Positions 49,309 to 63,243 of a stretch of 64,000 nucleotides of DNA are shown piece after piece (position 1 is the first letter of the stretch; every line of letters begins with the position of its first letter). This DNA is from Nitrosopumilus sp. (GTDB taxonomy: Archaea > Thermoproteota > Nitrososphaeria > Nitrososphaerales > Nitrosopumilaceae). Below the pieces are notes generated by a model that had not been told where the DNA came from, did not search any database, and saw only the letters and a list, made by a program, of their open reading frames with translations. Where the stretch lies: positions 864,001-928,000 of the forward strand of contig OZ244651.1 of NCBI GenBank assembly GCA_965218695.1, read 5' to 3'. Both the position numbers and the translations under genes were made by a program.

Positions 49309-51455
49309 GTAAGAGGTCGCCTTTGCGAAGCGATTCCGTGCCTGATCTGTTCCGATTAATTACCAACTGAGCTACGTTTTTGACCATAAATACCCGATTA
49401 ATTGCACGTTATCAACACGGTCCTCAGGCAGGGCGGTTTTCGGATCAAGGCTCTTCCGGTTGGATCTTTTGCGCCGCATTTTCCGGCAGGCGCTGCGTGC
49501 CCAAAAGCTTTATGGATCATGCCTTCCCGTGTTATGGCGTGGTGCCTGTAATCGACTTGGAAAAGATTGACTGGAACTCCGTAACCGACACCAAGTCCCT
49601 CTTCGAATCCGTCTTGGACATGCTCAAATCCAAGGACGAGGAGAGCATGGCACTGAGAAAAGACATCGAGCAGCTGAAGGAGGAGGCAGAGGCCTTCTCA
49701 GGGGAACACGCGATGCTGACGGAGATGGATGCCAGGATCAAACTGCTGGAAGAAGAGAATGTGCAAAAGGACTCCGAGATAGAGAAACTGAGGGCAGAGA
49801 ATGCCGCCCTCCTGCAGGGATGCGACGTCTCGCAGGCAGTCATGGACAGGATAGCCCGCCTGGAGCAGCAGGCATCAGAGCATGCCTCTCAGTTAAGGGA
49901 GGCGCGCGCGGCCAACTCGGCGCTGGCAGCCGAGAATCTGGGCATCAAAAGCCGCCGCTCCCAGAAGCGGCTCCGGGAATCACCCGGGCCTGCGCCGGAC
50001 CCGTTCAGGAAGGTCGTCTGCCTGCGCACCGGCCGTGATCCTCCCCCGATATCCGAAAAAAAGCTAGTCGACATGCCCGCCTGCCCGCACGGCCATGCCC
50101 TCTCGAAGGAGCCCACCGAGGTGACCATCCGGGTAGTCGAGGAGATCATCGACGGGAAGCTGACCGGCATCCAGTATACCGTCGTCCGCAGGTACTGCGG
50201 GGAATGCGGCAGGCAGTTTGCCCCCGAGATCCCAGGGGTCGTCCCAGGGGGGCGGTTCGGCGCCAGCCTGACGTGCCTTGAGACGACGATGAGGATGTAC
50301 AACATTCCCTACGAACCCATCCGCAAGCTGATCAACATAATCTACCACGCAGGCCTTGCCAAGTCGACAGTCATCAGCCACGTGGATGCCGTTACGGGAT
50401 CCCTCCACCCGCTCTACGAGGAGATGCTCGAGGATATATTCTTCTCAGGGCATGTCTTTGGCGACGAGACCAGCTGGAGGGTAGCCGGGATACTGTACTG
50501 GCTGTGGATACTAGTCGGTGACAACTCGACTGTCTTTTACGTGGACAAGAGCCGGGGAGGAGACGTGCTGGAGACCCTGCTTGGAGGGTACGGCGGCCAC
50601 GTCACCTCTGATTCACACGCTGCGTGGAACCGCATCGGCAGGACCCACCAAAAGTGCCACTACCACTACCTCCGCGAGATCCTCCGCACCCTGACCATGA
50701 AGAACCCCGGGCCCGAATTCAAAAAGTTCGCCAAGGCCCTGAAGGGGATAATCACCGATTCCTGGTTCCCGGAGAAGGGACTCGACCCGGACGACGACGA
50801 GGCCACGCGAAACCTCAAGGTGCGCAACCTATTGGCCAGGGTGAGGCGCCTGATCTCCGGCGAGTATACAGACGCCCACTGCAAGCGGTTTGTCAAGCGG
50901 CTGCGGCGCGAGATCACCCACCTGTTCCCATTCATCCGCCTCAACACAAAGTGCCATAACAACGATGCCGAGCGCCCCCTGCGGCCCAGCGTCGCATCCC
51001 GGAAGGTCTCAGGCGGCAGCAAGAGCCTTGCCGGCGCATACAACCACGCCGTCCTGGCCACCGTCCGCGAGACGTGCAGGAGGCGCGGAGTCAACCCGCA
51101 TGACTTTTTGGTTGACTATATGCACGGTCTTGTCGAAAAAATTCCGACAGGAGCAGCAGCAACTGCATAAATCCTGCAAAATCCACTCCCTGACTGTTCC
51201 ATGCAGACCCGTCGCGCCGGCAGCCTGGCATAACCTCGCCTGATCCCGGCACAATTCACCGCCCGGCCGCTTCAAAAAAGGCCACTTCGCAAACCCGATC
51301 ACCGGATCGGCCAAAACGTAGCTCAGTCTGACCCTCCCGGAAAAAACCTGAAATAATGCCAATTAAATGGGCATTTACGGCCGAAAACGTAGCTCAGTTG
51401 GTAATTAATCGGGGCAGATCAGGCACGGAATCGCTTCGCAAAGGCGACCTCTTAC
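49309..51455 (+). mobile_element. IS66-family element with very long TIRs, copy B
   Basis: Same approximately 96-bp TIRs as 31845-34096; 8-bp TSD ATTCCGTG. Confidence 0.93.
49539..51170 (+). CDS. IS66-family transposase
   Basis: Close paralog of 32079-33773, lacking 21 aa of coiled coil; start uncertain. Confidence 0.92.
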   Translation: MVPVIDLEKIDWNSVTDTKSLFESVLDMLKSKDEESMALRKDIEQLKEEAEAFSGEHAMLTEMDARIKLLEEENVQKDSEIEKLRAENAALLQGCDVSQAVMDRIARLEQQASEHASQLREARAANSALAAENLGIKSRRSQKRLRESPGPAPDPFRKVVCLRTGRDPPPISEKKLVDMPACPHGHALSKEPTEVTIRVVEEIIDGKLTGIQYTVVRRYCGECGRQFAPEIPGVVPGGRFGASLTCLETTMRMYNIPYEPIRKLINIIYHAGLAKSTVISHVDAVTGSLHPLYEEMLEDIFFSGHVFGDETSWRVAGILYWLWILVGDNSTVFYVDKSRGGDVLETLLGGYGGHVTSDSHAAWNRIGRTHQKCHYHYLREILRTLTMKNPGPEFKKFAKALKGIITDSWFPEKGLDPDDDEATRNLKVRNLLARVRRLISGEYTDAHCKRFVKRLRREITHLFPFIRLNTKCHNNDAERPLRPSVASRKVSGGSKSLAGAYNHAVLATVRETCRRRGVNPHDFLVDYMHGLVEKIPTGAAATA

Positions 51456-52576: not shown

Positions 52577-53893
52577 TTGAATGACACTAGCTTTGTCTGG
52601 CATCCGAACACACAGATGAGCGAGTGGGAGTCCTTTGACAGGATTACCAGTGCAAAGGGTGTCTGGCTTGTCGACTCCCACAGGAGACGCATGATAGATG
52701 CCGTGGCCTCCATGTGGTGCAACGTATGGGGCCACTCGGACGCAGAACTTGTCCGCACCATCGTCTCACAGACTAAAAAGATGCAGCACACCCCCCTGTT
52801 CAATCTGACCCACGGGCCCGCAGAAGACCTGGCAGCCGGCCTCATAGACATCTCGCCTGGAATGCACAGGGTGTTTTACTCGGATAACGGCTCTGCGGCA
52901 ATGGAGGTTGCCATAAAGATGGCGCTGCAGTACTGGAATAATGCCGGGGAGAAAAGGACCAGAATCGCCACGCTCCGAAACGGATACCACGGGGACACGT
53001 TTGGCGCAATGTCCGTCGGATACGTTCCGGAATTCTTTGGCAGGTTCAAGCGACAGTTGTTCTCGGCCACGCGCCTGCCTGTCCCTGACGGGTACCGCAC
53101 CCCCAAGGGACTCACTCCTTCTGAGGATCAGAGCCGCTGCCTGGGCATGATAGAGTCCGTATTGTCCCGGGACGACACTGCCGCATTTGTAATGGAGAGC
53201 GGCGCGCAGGTTGCAGGAGGCGTAAGAATCTATCCTGAGGGATTTCAAAGGGAGATAGGCAGGATGTGCCAGAAGCATGGCGTGCTGCTGGTCCTGGATG
53301 AGATTGCCACCGGGTTTGGCAGGCTTGGCTCGATGGTCCAGTACGCTGAACAGGGATGCACCCCTGACATTGTGGCATACGGCAAGATGCTGACCGGGGG
53401 ATACCTTACCATGGCAGCCACGCTTGCAAACAGCAGGGTCTATGACTCTTTTCTTGGGGAGTTTGGCGATGCACGGCACATGTTCCACGGCCACACGTAC
53501 ACGGGCAACCCGATAGCAGCTGCCGTTGCAGACAGGAACCTCAAGATGTACCGCAAAAGACGCCTGATTGAGCGGATCCAAAAGACATCCAAAATATTCA
53601 AAGAGTACCGACAAGACCTTCTGGCACACGAGATGGTGGGGGACGTAAGGCACAAGGGAATGCTGATGGGAATAGAACTGGTATCAGACAAGAAGAAGAA
53701 AACCCCAATAACCTCCAAGACGTCCCTCAACAAGATACTGTTCGAGGAGGGAAGAAGGCATGGAATCTACCTGAGATCCCTTGGCAACATCCTTCTGCTG
53801 GTGCCGCCACTGGCAATCTCCGAGTCCGAGCTGCACACTCTTCTTGAGAGGGCGCTGCGAACCATCCATACGGCCTCTGCCAGGATCCTCTGA
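52577..53893 (+). CDS. bioA: Adenosylmethionine--8-amino-7-oxononanoate aminotransferase
   Basis: VWHPNTQM, SMWCNVWGH, YHGDTFGAMSV, DEIATGFGR, GKMLTGGY, HGHTYTGNP. Confidence 0.95.
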   Translation: MNDTSFVWHPNTQMSEWESFDRITSAKGVWLVDSHRRRMIDAVASMWCNVWGHSDAELVRTIVSQTKKMQHTPLFNLTHGPAEDLAAGLIDISPGMHRVFYSDNGSAAMEVAIKMALQYWNNAGEKRTRIATLRNGYHGDTFGAMSVGYVPEFFGRFKRQLFSATRLPVPDGYRTPKGLTPSEDQSRCLGMIESVLSRDDTAAFVMESGAQVAGGVRIYPEGFQREIGRMCQKHGVLLVLDEIATGFGRLGSMVQYAEQGCTPDIVAYGKMLTGGYLTMAATLANSRVYDSFLGEFGDARHMFHGHTYTGNPIAAAVADRNLKMYRKRRLIERIQKTSKIFKEYRQDLLAHEMVGDVRHKGMLMGIELVSDKKKKTPITSKTSLNKILFEEGRRHGIYLRSLGNILLLVPPLAISESELHTLLERALRTIHTASARIL

Positions 53894-53931
53894 CGGTTAA
53901 CCGGAATACCACAGACCGGTTAACCATTCCA

Positions 53932-54065
53932 GGTTCTGTAAAGTTACGGTGACCCGCGACTTGACTGATCCGCATCGACTGAAGTATTCGAATCCGGCTT
54001 CCCGGATCTAGCCCTCACCATCGCTTCATCTGCGGACCCGACTGGGCCAAACCACAGCCCACGTG
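53932..54065 (-). ncRNA. Candidate omega-RNA scaffold overlapping the tnpB 3' end
   Basis: Motifs TGAAGCGATG (54019-54028) and AGTCGATG (53973-53980) are shared with the second tnpB; hairpin ATCCGG-GAAG-CCGGAT between them; closing stem GGTCCGCA/TGCGGATC. Confidence 0.6.
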
Positions 54066-55164
54066 CAAGTATGTTTTTACCTGCATTCTTGTCCCTGTCT
54101 ATGGACACGTGGCAGCGTGTGCACGTTACCATGCGGTGCGCTTCGGGGTTTACTTTTCCCCCACATTCCGCGCACCTTGATGACGTACCTGCCGCCGATA
54201 TTTTCTTGGTCGGAAGGCCGATCCTTCTAGCCTTGTATTCAACCATGAATTGCAAAATATGATATCCCCAACTGTTCAGTTTGGTTCTGGTCTTTTTTGA
54301 CGTCCCGCAACCTTTCTTCCACTTGCCTTTCATGTCCGTCAGGTCTTCCATGACGATTCCCCGGTTCCTTGAGACGATCTCGTTTGCTGCCGCGTGCATG
54401 ATGGGCGTGGTCCTGTCTTTTTCTTTCTTGCCGTACTTTGAGGCAATCTTCTTCCTTACACGGTGGTCATTCCGCTTGAAACGACTGACTTTACCCCTGC
54501 ATTTCTCCCTGATATGCCTGACTTTGGCAATGTCCATGACTTTTACGTTGCGTTGGCTGTCATACGTGGTGATGTTGTCCAAATTCAGGTCCATTCCGAG
54601 CCATCCGTCTGGGACTGCTTGCTCGACGGTCTCTGAATATGACACGATCAGCCTGTCCTTGGTAAGCGTGATGCCGCCAAGTTTTCCACCTTGGATCTTC
54701 TCTGACACGTAGGATGCGAGCCTGATTCGGACATGGTTTCCGAGCATCGCGGGAATAACAATGGAACCGTCAGTGATCTTATAGTTCTGGTTGTTTATCT
54801 TGAGCACGTCTTTTCTGACGTACGGCCGCGTGGTTTTTTTGGGCTTCTTGGCAGGGTTGGATTTTCTTGTCTGGGTATTGCCTTTCTTTTTGTCCTTGGC
54901 CTTCCTTGCGGCCTTGCGGAGCGCGGTACGCCATGCTTTTAACAGAGATTTTCCGGTCTTGATTGCCTCCTGCGTGTGGGTGGCATAGTATCCTTTCCGC
55001 CTCATCTCAGGATACGCGAGTTCTTGGAACTTTTTGGTTGACGTGATGTTGTGGAGCATTCCCAATCTTATGGCCTCGTTGGTGTCGTGCCTGAAATTCT
55101 CAAACGTTTCTTTGAGCTCGTCGTGGCGGTCGTGGAACTGCCAGACGCATTCGGTGTGTTTCAC
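53944..55164 (-). CDS. tnpB: TnpB RNA-guided endonuclease
   Basis: RuvC I GMDLN, RuvC II MEDL, zinc finger TSSRCAECG...CTRC, RuvC III DRDKNAGKNI; triad intact. Confidence 0.92.
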   Translation of the reverse strand: MKHTECVWQFHDRHDELKETFENFRHDTNEAIRLGMLHNITSTKKFQELAYPEMRRKGYYATHTQEAIKTGKSLLKAWRTALRKAARKAKDKKKGNTQTRKSNPAKKPKKTTRPYVRKDVLKINNQNYKITDGSIVIPAMLGNHVRIRLASYVSEKIQGGKLGGITLTKDRLIVSYSETVEQAVPDGWLGMDLNLDNITTYDSQRNVKVMDIAKVRHIREKCRGKVSRFKRNDHRVRKKIASKYGKKEKDRTTPIMHAAANEIVSRNRGIVMEDLTDMKGKWKKGCGTSKKTRTKLNSWGYHILQFMVEYKARRIGLPTKKISAAGTSSRCAECGGKVNPEAHRMVTCTRCHVSIDRDKNAGKNILARGLWFGPVGSADEAMVRARSGKPDSNTSVDADQSSRGSP

Positions 55165-55309
55165 GTATTATGTTGGCCGGCGCGGCTTTTAAGGGCGGCC
55201 GAACACACGATATCCGCATATCCGTGTTAGTGTGCCGGCATGAGTGGGTCACTGTAACTTTAGTTCCCCTTTTCAGTATAATTATAAATGGAAAAGCACC
55301 ACGCACTTC

Positions 55310-56284
55310 ATGGGTGCGGAGTTCATAACGGCCTGCCAAGACAAGGTGATGACCTCCGGGGCAGGAATATCTGCAGAGGAGGCAAGGATGCTGTTTTATG
55401 TTCCCGACGTGCAGCTGCGGGATCTTGCGCGCGCAGCCGATGCCGTCACCAGGAGGTTTAACGGAGACATGGTGGATGTGGAGCAGCTCAACAACATCAA
55501 AAAGAATGCATGCAGCGAGGACTGCTCGTTCTGCGGACAGTCTGCCCTTTATGATACCGGGATTGAATCATACCAGCTTCCCGAACCGCAGGATATACTT
55601 GACAGGGCCAAAAGGGCCCACGAACAGGGCGCATCATCATACTGCCTGGTGGCTGCGTGGAGGAGGCCGTCCCCGGCAGACTTTGAGAAGGTGTGCCGGA
55701 TAATCGAGGCCATTCGCAGCATTCCAATCGGCATAGAGTGCAGCCTTGGATTCCTGAGTGCGGATCAGGCAGAGAGGCTCAAGGAGCTTGGCGTGAGGCG
55801 GTACAACCACAACTTGGAGACTGCACGATCAAAGTTTCATGACATCTGTACAACCCACACGTACGACGACCGGCTTGATACCCTGCATACTGCCCGCAGG
55901 GCCGGCCTGGAACTGTGCACCGGCGGAATAATCGGCCTTGGGGAGAGCAGAGGGCAGAGGCTGGAGCTTGCGCTGGAGCTGGCAGGACTGCATCCAGAAG
56001 AGGTTACGATAAACATACTGGTGCCCGTGCCGGGAACGCCGCTTGAGCTGCAGACGGCACTCCCAAACCACGAGATAGTCCGAATGTTCTCAGTCGTCAG
56101 GTTTCTGCTGCCAGAATCGATAATCAAGATATCCGGTGGGCGGGAGATACATCTTGCAGACTCCGGCGAGGAGCTGCTGCAGAGCGGAGCCAACGGCATC
56201 ATAACCGAAGGATACCTGACCATGGACGGGAATGATGCCGGGAGAGACTCTGGGATGATCAAAAGAATTGGACTCAAGGCATAA
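55310..56284 (+). CDS. bioB: Biotin synthase
   Basis: CSEDCSFCGQS radical-SAM motif, YNHNLET, CTGGIIGLGE; TTATAAA box upstream. Confidence 0.96.
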   Translation: MGAEFITACQDKVMTSGAGISAEEARMLFYVPDVQLRDLARAADAVTRRFNGDMVDVEQLNNIKKNACSEDCSFCGQSALYDTGIESYQLPEPQDILDRAKRAHEQGASSYCLVAAWRRPSPADFEKVCRIIEAIRSIPIGIECSLGFLSADQAERLKELGVRRYNHNLETARSKFHDICTTHTYDDRLDTLHTARRAGLELCTGGIIGLGESRGQRLELALELAGLHPEEVTINILVPVPGTPLELQTALPNHEIVRMFSVVRFLLPESIIKISGGREIHLADSGEELLQSGANGIITEGYLTMDGNDAGRDSGMIKRIGLKA

Positions 56285-62063: not shown

Positions 62064-63243
62064 ATGTACAGTATGACCACTCGCCACGTACTGTCCGTCT
62101 GGCAGCCGCACGCACTCGGCGCGGAATTCAGATACATGTTTGCCGAGTTCCGTTCAATCGTAAACGAGGCGGTACGGCTTGGCCGCAAGATGGATCTGCG
62201 CACGCGCAAGGAGTTCCAGAATGCACTGTACCGCACGCTGAAGGGCGACAGGACGTACGGGAAATACGTCCAGCACGCGGATGGGTTTTGCCATCAGGCT
62301 CCTCAAGCAGTACCGCACACTGCTAAAACAGAATCCAAAGACGCGCCTCCCGCGTCTGAGAAAAGATGTGCTGGAGCTTGACGGTCAGTTTTATACCATC
62401 AGCAACGGCGTGATCCGCATACCGTTGTGCCTCGGCGAATACCTATACATCCCGCTGCAGAAATACGTATTGGAACGGCTCGACGGCATGAAGCCGGGGG
62501 GCGTGCGGATCACATCAGACAGGCTGACAATCTCTTATGCCCAGAATGTGGAGAAGGTGATGCCAGACGACTGGGCGGGAGTGGATTTCAACGAGAGAAA
62601 CGCAACCATACACGACACGCGCGACAACACGACTGTGATTTCGCTGGGAAGGATCCCAGACACGCAGACCAAGTGCCGCGGCAAGGTGGCAAACTTTAAG
62701 CGCAACGACGTCCGCAAGCGGAAAAAGATTGCAGCCAAATACGGCAAGAAGGAGCGAGACCTCACAAACGACATGCTGCACAAGGCTGCCAAGTTTCTGA
62801 TATTATCCGGATTCGGCATTGTCTTGGAAGACCTCATGGGTATTCGGGAACAGCACCGGTGCGGGAGCAAAATGGGAAAGGGTTTGCGTGGACGGATCAA
62901 CGCTTGGCCGTTTTATAGGCTGAGAAATTTCATAGAGTACAAGGCACGTGAGGCAGGACTCCCCGTTGTTTTTGTGCCGGCACGCGGCACAAGCTCGCTT
63001 TGTGCGGAATGCGGGGGAAAGGTACGCCTCAAGCGCAACCGCATGGTACACTGCAGGACGTGTGACACACTCGCAGACAGGGATGAAAACGCGAGTAAGA
63101 ACATACTCTTTCGTGGCCCCGGGACCCGGGCCAGACTGGGCGCATGTGAAGCGATGATGGAAGAATCCCCTGGCGGGGCGGTACGACTAGTCGATGTTTG
63201 CTCAATGCAGAAAGGTGCGTGTCTGCGCACCGATTACGCATAA
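62064..63243 (+). pseudogene. tnpB: TnpB with a single-base frameshift near 62280
   Basis: ORFs 62064-62381 and 62281-63243 join (QHAMGFAI) if one G is removed; GVDFN, LEDL, CAECG, DRDENASKNI intact. Confidence 0.85.

Follow-up and report, generated by a model that had tools for sequence, protein, structure and literature searches.

We analysed a 64-kb stretch of the genome of Nitrosopumilus sp. (hereafter the window; the host genome comprises 2.63 Mb on 9 contigs and is 99.99% complete) in which a tnpB gene and its omega-RNA occupy a 1336-bp mobile element at positions 53932–55267. The element is probably a non-autonomous IS6-type transposon that has tnpB and the omega-RNA as its only cargo and is moved by an IS6-family transposase encoded elsewhere. 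The ends of the element, its target duplications and the matching empty sites were observed directly, as were miniature derivatives, the absence of Y1 and serine transposases, IS6 transposons with matching tips, a constrained tnpB and a covarying RNA. A first-pass annotation of the same DNA had proposed a non-autonomous element with terminal inverted repeats, carrying TnpB and omega-RNA and moved in trans by a DDE transposase; this proposal is supported here, and the acting enzyme is one that we infer.

Three full copies of the element were found in the genome by DNA search, namely copy A in the window (100% nucleotide identity), copy B at C1:765674–767011 (97%) and copy C at C1:825049–826376 (84%), in which tnpB is frameshifted. 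Two fragments, D and E, are 176-nt pieces of the tnpB 3′ end and are 86% identical to copy A. When aligned, copies A to E start together at window position 53932 with GG(T/C)TCTGTAAAG, and the full copies A, B and C share a common terminus, ...CTTTA(CA)GTTCC. The right-hand repeat of copy A lacks 2 nt (CA) relative to copies B and C, which places the right end at 55267. The first-pass annotation had given the span as 53932–55269; its left end stands, whereas its right end lies 2 nt too far out.

The terminal inverted repeats of the aligned copies, read from the outside inwards, follow the 24-nt consensus GG(T/C/A)(T/A)CTGTAAAGTTAC(G/A)GTGACCC at both ends, and extend to the extreme tips in all three full copies. 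A repeat search agreed with the inverted pair reported earlier, the 17-nt arms at 53939–53955 and 55246–55262 being 94% complementary (16/17), but the true repeat is longer than this pair, reaching the tips over 24 nt in copies B and C. With up to 2 mismatches allowed, the 17-mer matched at two places in the window (0.02 expected), a number that none of 100 shuffles reached. With up to 3 mismatches, the core occurred eight times in the genome, on all eight occasions at the ends of copies A–C or of fragments D and E.

The repeat at the tnpB 3′ end (right end, RE; GGTTCTGTAAAGTTACGGTGACCC, 53932–53955, on the left in the window) begins where the homology of copies A to E begins, and that at the tnpB 5′ end (left end, LE) spans 22 nt here, at 55246–55267, as placed by the copy alignment; no strand is assigned to the repeats or the duplications. 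The gene itself (53944–55164, minus strand, GTG start, 406 aa), defined by its open reading frame (ORF) and by profile matches, is the sole gene between the element ends in the ORF list, and no transposase gene lies inside. Its stop codon (53944–53946, 12 nt from the tip) falls within RE, as had been noted before, and RE also includes the 3′ end of the guide-RNA scaffold. The tnpB 3′ end thus lies within 250 bp of a transposon end bounded by inverted repeats, the combination described for DDE-associated TnpB branches. A TATA-like box, TTAAAA (55187–55192, minus strand), recognised by reading the sequence, precedes the GTG of tnpB by about 26 nt and is a likely promoter within the left end.

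Each full copy is flanked by a duplication of 8 bp of target DNA, perfect for copy B (CATGCAAG, 8/8) and copy C (TATCAAAA, 8/8). At copy A, for which the first-pass annotation reported no perfect target duplication, the two 8-mers, CCATTCCA at 53924–53931 and CCTTTTCA at 55268–55275, are identical at 6/8 positions, and their origin as a duplication is proven by empty sites and a bridging contig. In a genome of the same genus (G002; flanks ∼92–93% identical) the bioA–bioB spacer is uninterrupted and has one copy of CCTTTCCA, and a second genome (G018) has one copy of CCATTCCA at site A, the two together giving the site pattern CCWTTCCA. The empty bioA–bioB junction that had been suggested as a check is therefore present in both relatives, with a single 8-mer in each. 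The sites of copies B and C are likewise unoccupied in G002, each with one 8-mer, so that the duplications were verified in 3/3 cases. Moreover, a contig of the public run X5 joins 53923 to 55268, skipping 1344 nt, that is, the 1336-bp element plus one 8-mer. None of the three insertions is present in G002, the closest genome compared, and A, B and C were therefore all inserted after the split from it. The alignment of genomic copies, likewise suggested beforehand, showed a retained inverted repeat, the same end points and the perfect duplications of copies B and C. Fragments D and E, at C1:1735775–1735957 and C1:294645–294827, have flanks in common with each other and with one G002 locus; both are truncated by an 18-copy insertion sequence (IS) of 1168 bp, and a surviving left end was sought beyond this IS and not found.

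Derivatives that have lost most of the element keep its termini. A mini-copy in G002 consists of 67 nt of RE joined to ∼70 nt of LE, with both repeats kept and with flanks GATTCGGG and GATTCAGG that agree at 7/8 positions. An X5 contig contains a mini-element made of 53932–54107 (176 nt of RE), 44 other nucleotides and 55085–55262 (178 nt of LE). In parallel, the repeat-core pattern was found in 9/201 genomes of the family, representing 3/27 genera (reversed control, 1 hit). The same core bounds elements of ∼140 bp in another genus (G105 and G184) that resemble MITEs (miniature transposable elements with inverted repeats), have unrelated interiors and contain no tnpB; a tnpB-less element of 580 bp in G140 is flanked by TATGACAT at 8/8. 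The presence of the core on elements with unrelated interiors shows that the repeat can serve as the end of a mobile element that has no tnpB. For the MITE-like elements L057 and L067 (G105) and L054, L061 and L063 (G184, G105), a duplication length of 9 bp gives a better fit than one of 8 bp, provided that CGGGC is taken as the tip.

The tips of the element read GGTTCTGTAAAG... and show the GG termini and cTGTt-type motif of the IS6/IS26 family. According to the portion of the IS6 review consulted (PMC7986276), members of this family end in GG, contain a cTGTt motif and are flanked by target repeats of 8 bp, and one passenger-carrying member (ISDsp3) and two MITEs are listed there. The IS6-like terminus claimed in the first-pass annotation agrees with that description in its GG tips, its CTGT motif and the 8-bp duplication. 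Searches with Y1_Tnp (PF01797) and with the serine-recombinase profile Resolvase (PF00239), both of which gave matches in control genomes, returned none in this 99.99% complete genome. The earlier statement that tnpA is missing is thus borne out genome-wide, and no copy sits beside a Y1 or serine TnpA with canonical ends, an arrangement that, according to the first-pass annotation, would have refuted its proposal.

Four IS6-like DDE lineages are encoded in the genome, with proteins of 379, 442, 352 and 404 aa whose best match, over the full profile, is NF033587 (116, 104, 96 and 84 bits). The 404-aa zinc-finger protein is carried by a six-copy IS of 1695 bp (one copy at C1:685230–686924) with ends GGTTCTCCTGCATC... 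and 83-nt inverted repeats starting GGTTCTCC. Clear repeat pairs were seen among the IS6-like genes of this genome only for the six-copy IS and for C9:37726–39364, and the 379-aa gene has only a weak pair (15/24). In a related genome, G270, a 388-aa transposase scores 128.4 bits, above the IS6 cut-off, and also matches SWIM, IS1/IS1595 zinc-binding and DDE_Tnp_IS240 profiles; the ends of its IS start GGTTCTGTAAAGCC and GGCTCTGTAAAGTC, and their first 12 nt are identical to the tips of the TnpB element (12/12). A 2.74-kb element of the same genome (L132, G270:C1:786717–789464) with tips GGTTCTGTGAAGTTATAGGCACC encodes a frameshifted IS6-like transposase, and no flanking duplication was seen around it. 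L132 has long identical inverted repeats and also carries an ORF for an MT-A70-like DNA methyltransferase (DPPW motif) and an ORF of 189 aa, a cargo that may represent restriction-modification. At L133:6690–6779 in G270, a solitary TnpB-type repeat (GGTTCTGTAAAGTTACAGTGACC) encloses, 36 nt in, the right end of the G270 IS6 element, so that two related ends are nested.

Genomes G151, G340 and G134 contain both TnpB elements of this kind and IS6 transposases above the cut-off. One IS6 element of G151 has GGTACTGTTGC... ends and an 8/8 duplication; for the IS6 genes of G134 and G340 an end pair was sought in 1.5-kb flanks and none was found. A scan of named records for the repeat core returned 24 stretches, of which 8 are in Nitrosopumilaceae or Nitrosopumilus records; the remaining 16, from bacteria, are taken as chance matches, because several tens were expected for the pattern by hand estimate. 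The two G270 elements described above, reached by way of these loci, are the closest links found between the repeat and an IS6 transposase.

Relatives of the TnpB protein (E ≤1e-20) occur in 44/301 genomes of the family and in 7/27 genera, four unpublished genomes included. At 24 published loci, the tnpB 3′ end terminates in the complement of GGNNCTRTNAA in 14, and the same motif lies upstream of the gene in 5, one of which is doubtful. A metagenome scan with a 12-protein profile confirmed 361 relatives; the best 80 were kept, and the 5 close enough for end comparison (31–39% identity) included 4 with the same terminus and 2 with both ends. Within the host genome, a second lineage is represented by copy F (G000:C1:2386415–2390994), whose intact 406-aa tnpB (C1:2389795–2390934) has 44% amino acid identity; its inverted repeats are 55 nt long and start GGTTCTGTTAAC, the 8-bp duplication (TGAATTAT) is perfect, and IS5-like and IS66-like elements were inserted later between its left end and the gene. 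The ends of a transposase-less element with tips of this type were also observed elsewhere in the host genome. More distant multi-copy TnpB lineages in G134 and G340 behave alike. Flanks were tallied for 17 TnpB elements in which both ends were recognised: the duplication is 8/8 in seven (B, C, F, L251, L252, L254 and L260), 7/8 in three (L144, L253 and L258), 6/8 in one (A) and 5/8 in one (L136), and one more (L159) has a 6-nt repeat only.

The nuclease encoded by copy A matches NCBIfam NF040570 (guided_TnpB) at 121.6 bits against a cut-off of 100 and Pfam PF07282 (Cas12f1-like_TNB) at 56.8 bits against 26.3, while OrfB_IS605 (PF01385), at 22 bits, is below its cut-off of 30.5. In an alignment of 12 relatives, residues D192, E273, D356, R357 and D358 as well as C331, C334, C348 and C351 are invariant, which confirms that the RuvC triad (D192/E273/D358) is intact, as the first-pass annotation had it. 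The protein has the RuvC-III motif DRDxN and a CxxC...CxxC zinc ribbon, and its motifs align with those of solved TnpB and Cas12f chains. Copies A and B, both of which keep 406-aa frames, differ by 18.5 synonymous and 14.5 non-synonymous changes, a ratio of non-synonymous to synonymous rates (dN/dS) of 0.21. From its RuvC triad, zinc ribbon and dN/dS, tnpB looks functional. A second TnpB homologue in the window (62082–63165, plus strand) is 45% identical over residues 106–385; the N-terminus has its own match (33%) immediately before this, and the homologue is probably split or frameshifted. No GGTTCTGT tip was seen at its 3′ end.

For the guide RNA, the 220 nt up to the element end were aligned from 23 elements. 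The consensus has three helices with 19 base pairs, 15 of which show compensatory changes. Pairing is possible in 94.3% of cells, compared with 26–32% when the partners are slid by 1–3 columns, and the covariation score is 0.68, compared with at most 0.12 for slid partners and with 0/500 shuffles reaching 0.68; some rows are close relatives, so that these figures overstate independence, although the slid controls preserve this relatedness. The scaffold occupies 53932–54107 (minus strand; the 5′ limit is approximate), with helix 1 formed by 54056–54060 and 54044–54048, helix 2 by 54031–54038 and 53967–53974, and helix 3 by 53960–53965 and 53938–53943, all on the minus strand and all defined by covariation. 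The 3′ arm of helix 3 is made of nucleotides 7–12 of the inverted repeat, and these bases covary with their RNA partner. The same bases therefore serve both the RNA and the transposon end. The same 176 nt of scaffold survive in fragments D and E and in the X5 mini-element, and copies A and B do not differ over 53932–54048, the 117 nt of scaffold nearest the end. A scan of 53800–55400 against Rfam at E ≤1 gave no match.

Taken from the RE boundary and the known geometry of TnpB guides, the predicted guide would be read from the flank at 53912–53931 (minus strand), starting with UGGAAUGG, the 8-nt target duplication, and continuing with UUAACCGG; the guide start forecast in the first-pass annotation follows from the verified boundary at 53932. 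Directly after the stop of the bioA-like gene, at 53895–53925, two 10-bp arms, GGTTAACCGG ... CCGGTTAACC, form an inverted repeat without mismatches around a loop of 11 nt, which is partly retained in G002 and G018. The target duplication overlaps the last two bases of this hairpin, and the predicted guide would consequently include one hairpin arm.

The anatomy of the element gives good support to the steps of transposition up to insertion; we infer the identity of the transposase, its action in trans, and both the expression of TnpB with its RNA and their cutting of DNA. An IS6-family DDE transposase made elsewhere would bind both 24-nt inverted ends, and in this lineage the enzyme would be of the long form, with SWIM and IS1/IS1595-type zinc-binding domains. 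Cuts staggered by 8 bp at insertion would produce the 8-bp target duplication. The tnpB gene would be transcribed from the left-end promoter, and processing of the 3′ portion of this transcript would release the RNA scaffold, for which the flank would provide the guide. The end that contains the stop codon would have a double role, as a transposase site and as the 3′ arm and tail of the last omega-RNA hairpin. Because it doubles as the hairpin tail, outgoing transcription would append the flank, that is, the 8-bp duplication and the sequence downstream of it, as guide. A guide so composed would match the unoccupied allele only; at the occupied locus its first 8 nt recur beside the left end and are followed by element sequence. 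TnpB would most likely cut empty alleles, with the result that repair copies the element in or that element-free genomes are disfavoured.

Several observations weigh against transposition by an IS6-family enzyme. All IS6-like transposases of this genome fall under the 125-bit NCBIfam cut-off (NF033587). As for transposases with the same terminal repeat, which the first-pass annotation advised seeking in the genome, IS6-like DDE enzymes are present, but a genome search with the 17-mer core found the full 24-nt repeat on no IS of this genome. The six-copy IS6-like IS makes 9-bp rather than 8-bp duplications (5/6 copies), and in four of the 17 two-ended TnpB elements (L164, L167, L169 and L255) a flanking duplication was not found. 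The motif at the tnpB 3′ end, present at 14 of the 24 published loci against 5 at LE, suggests that conservation of RE may be due in part to the RNA and not to the transposase. Classical IS6 elements move through cointegrates, whereas the transposase-less copies described here are simple insertions. Finally, no tnpB and IS6 transposase were found within one end pair, all 29 TnpB loci (4 of them from unpublished genomes) being negative within ∼1.5 kb; among the repeat-bearing loci there was no composite of the two, only IS6 elements lacking tnpB. As no IS6-like gene lies near tnpB at any locus, the tnpB elements are non-autonomous across the loci examined.

The element might alternatively be moved by a different DDE family that makes 8-bp duplications, for instance an IS66-like one, and owe its IS6-like tips to mere resemblance. 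The genome is extremely rich in ISs (352 repeated intervals of at least 400 bp, in ∼25 families with up to 50 copies), several of these families show 8-bp flanking repeats in a crude survey of ends, and an IS66-family transposase gene (PF03050, 100 bits) lies 3 kb upstream in the window, at 49380–51170 on the plus strand; the sub-threshold scores of the IS6-like proteins of this genome point the same way. However, among 25 repeat families surveyed such tips occur only on the IS6-like one (GGTTCTCC...), IS6-family ISs of related genomes share 12/12 tip nucleotides, or 19/23 over the repeat by hand count, and GG tips, CTGT and 8 bp together form the published IS6 signature. We give this explanation a small chance. 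The chance is slightly smaller still that the element is an evolutionary fossil, with ends that were once used and a tnpB and RNA that no longer function while copies persist. The frameshift in copy C, the truncation of D and E, and the 2-nt deletion in one repeat and decayed duplication of copy A would fit such decay, but copies A and B keep full 406-aa frames at a dN/dS of 0.21 with 117 nt of scaffold unchanged, and all three insertions are missing from G002 and hence later than the split.

The IS200/IS605 and IS607 families have TnpB as their hallmark cargo, and the element starts with GG, as many IS607 members end according to the part of a 2026 review that was available (PMC13565253). That the element is a conventional member of IS200/IS605 (IS1341 group) or IS607, mobilised by a Y1 or serine TnpA in the form of single-stranded or site-specific DNA, and that its inverted repeat is incidental, is nevertheless very improbable: those elements have neither inverted ends nor duplications, both of which are present here with empty sites for 3/3 copies, the genome contains no Y1 and no serine recombinase match, and the sequence adjacent to LE is variable rather than a fixed target of 4–5 nt. 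More remote again is the alternative raised by the first-pass annotation itself, in which the two arms are halves of a palindromic tyrosine-recombinase site and the whole is a small integrative cassette. TnpBs linked to tyrosine recombinases and associated with inverted repeats do exist (PMC10691335), although the cases reported in the sections of that study seen coincide with an inactivated TnpB, and the triad is intact here. Moreover, the insertion sites have no common core, and at three independent sites the duplicated 8 bp of target differ in sequence from one insertion to the next; we regard this alternative as overturned for practical purposes. The IS6-type transposon moved in trans remains the probable explanation.

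The flanks also show a pattern that would bear on target choice. On the tnpB 5′ side, the triplet just beyond the duplication reads TAC at copies A and C and TAT at copy B and the G002 mini-copy, and TAY accounts for 2.3% of sites across the genome; nothing resembling it was seen on the other side of the duplication. For the empty allele to be recognised by a flank-derived guide, a target-adjacent motif (TAM) must lie at this very position. The insertions compared are few, and the motif was picked after seeing the data. In a further lineage, from G340, the position reads TGC in 2/2 copies, and three tnpB-less elements with related ends, read by eye, have TAY on neither side. That choice or survival of the insertion site is coupled to TnpB is a doubtful proposition. 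If true, it would mean TnpB-driven homing into empty alleles, with only TAM-adjacent insertions persisting, or alternatively that TnpB picks the targets, as a primitive counterpart of CRISPR-associated transposons.

In the window, the element is flanked by a bioA-like class-III aminotransferase gene (52577–53893, plus strand; PF00202, 288 bits) and a bioB-like gene for a radical-SAM/BATS protein (55308–56284, plus strand). The profile matches of the latter (PF04055 and PF06968) were obtained on the longer ORF 55244–56284, and its start at 55308, an ATG after a TATA-like stretch, is putative. The AT-rich region of the bioB promoter begins directly downstream of site A, a further caveat to the TAY pattern.

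Cas12 descends from TnpB, whose accepted role is linked with scarless excision in the IS200/IS605 and IS607 families. In the present case an intact, constrained TnpB module resides in transposons that make target duplications, most likely by way of an IS6-type replicative enzyme that never excises, and the use of an RNA-guided nuclease to a transposon that leaves no empty donor site thereby becomes testable. One short sequence serves as transposase site and guide-RNA hairpin, which limits how the module can hop from one transposon family to another. As a practical benefit, these elements are a source of compact archaeal TnpBs whose RNA 3′ ends are precisely defined.

The association of TnpB with DDE transposons is in itself established. 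Altae-Tran et al. (2023, PNAS; PMC10691335) describe, in the portion consulted, six DDE-associated TnpB branches, all with inverted terminal repeats and with IS630 named, as well as solo TnpBs within the same ends that are presumed to be moved in trans; the 2026 review (PMC13565253), to the extent available, gives ISL2, IS630 and IS1031 as DDE partners. Our literature search, judged by titles and abstracts, found no described link of TnpB with IS6, nor one between TnpB and a transposase of Nitrosopumil*, although the supplementary tables of PMC10691335 may hold the clade. What was known, then, is that DDE-linked TnpBs with inverted ends exist (2023); what holds as new is TnpB with its omega-RNA as a non-autonomous IS6-type passenger in ammonia-oxidising archaea.

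The element resembles the DDE-associated TnpB branches in that TnpB lies in an inverted-repeat transposon and no more than 250 bp separate the 3′ end of its gene from the transposon end, but differs in that the partners printed for those branches, in the text seen, are IS630, ISL2 and IS1031 and not IS6, and that no locus examined here has a linked transposase gene. With IS6/IS26 elements and their MITEs, as far as the excerpts of the sources describe them, it shares the GG tips, the CTGT motif, the 8-bp duplication and the existence of transposase-less miniatures. Unlike classical IS6 elements, described there as ∼800 bp long with 14–20-nt repeats and a transposase only, it has tnpB but lacks a transposase gene, and its partners are likely to be long transposases of the zinc-finger type. 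Like the IS1341 group of IS200/IS605, it combines TnpB with an omega-RNA that overlaps the 3′ end of the gene and would take its guide from the flank; the subterminal hairpins, lack of inverted ends, lack of duplication and Y1 dependence of IS200/IS605 are all four wanting here, and the serine-recombinase TnpA of IS607, with its lack of inverted ends and duplications, likewise has no counterpart. The closest parallel outside prokaryotes, drawn already in the first-pass annotation, is with Fanzor in eukaryotic DDE transposons (PMC3627910, PMC10530073), where, in the parts of these reports seen, a TnpB-type nuclease also travels as a passenger between inverted repeats and with target duplications. 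The comparison is apt, but its principle is not new, prokaryotic DDE-linked TnpBs having been reported in PMC10691335; and in contrast to Fanzor, for which the same partial sources give eukaryotic or viral hosts and larger proteins, the nuclease described here is a typical small TnpB in an archaeal host.

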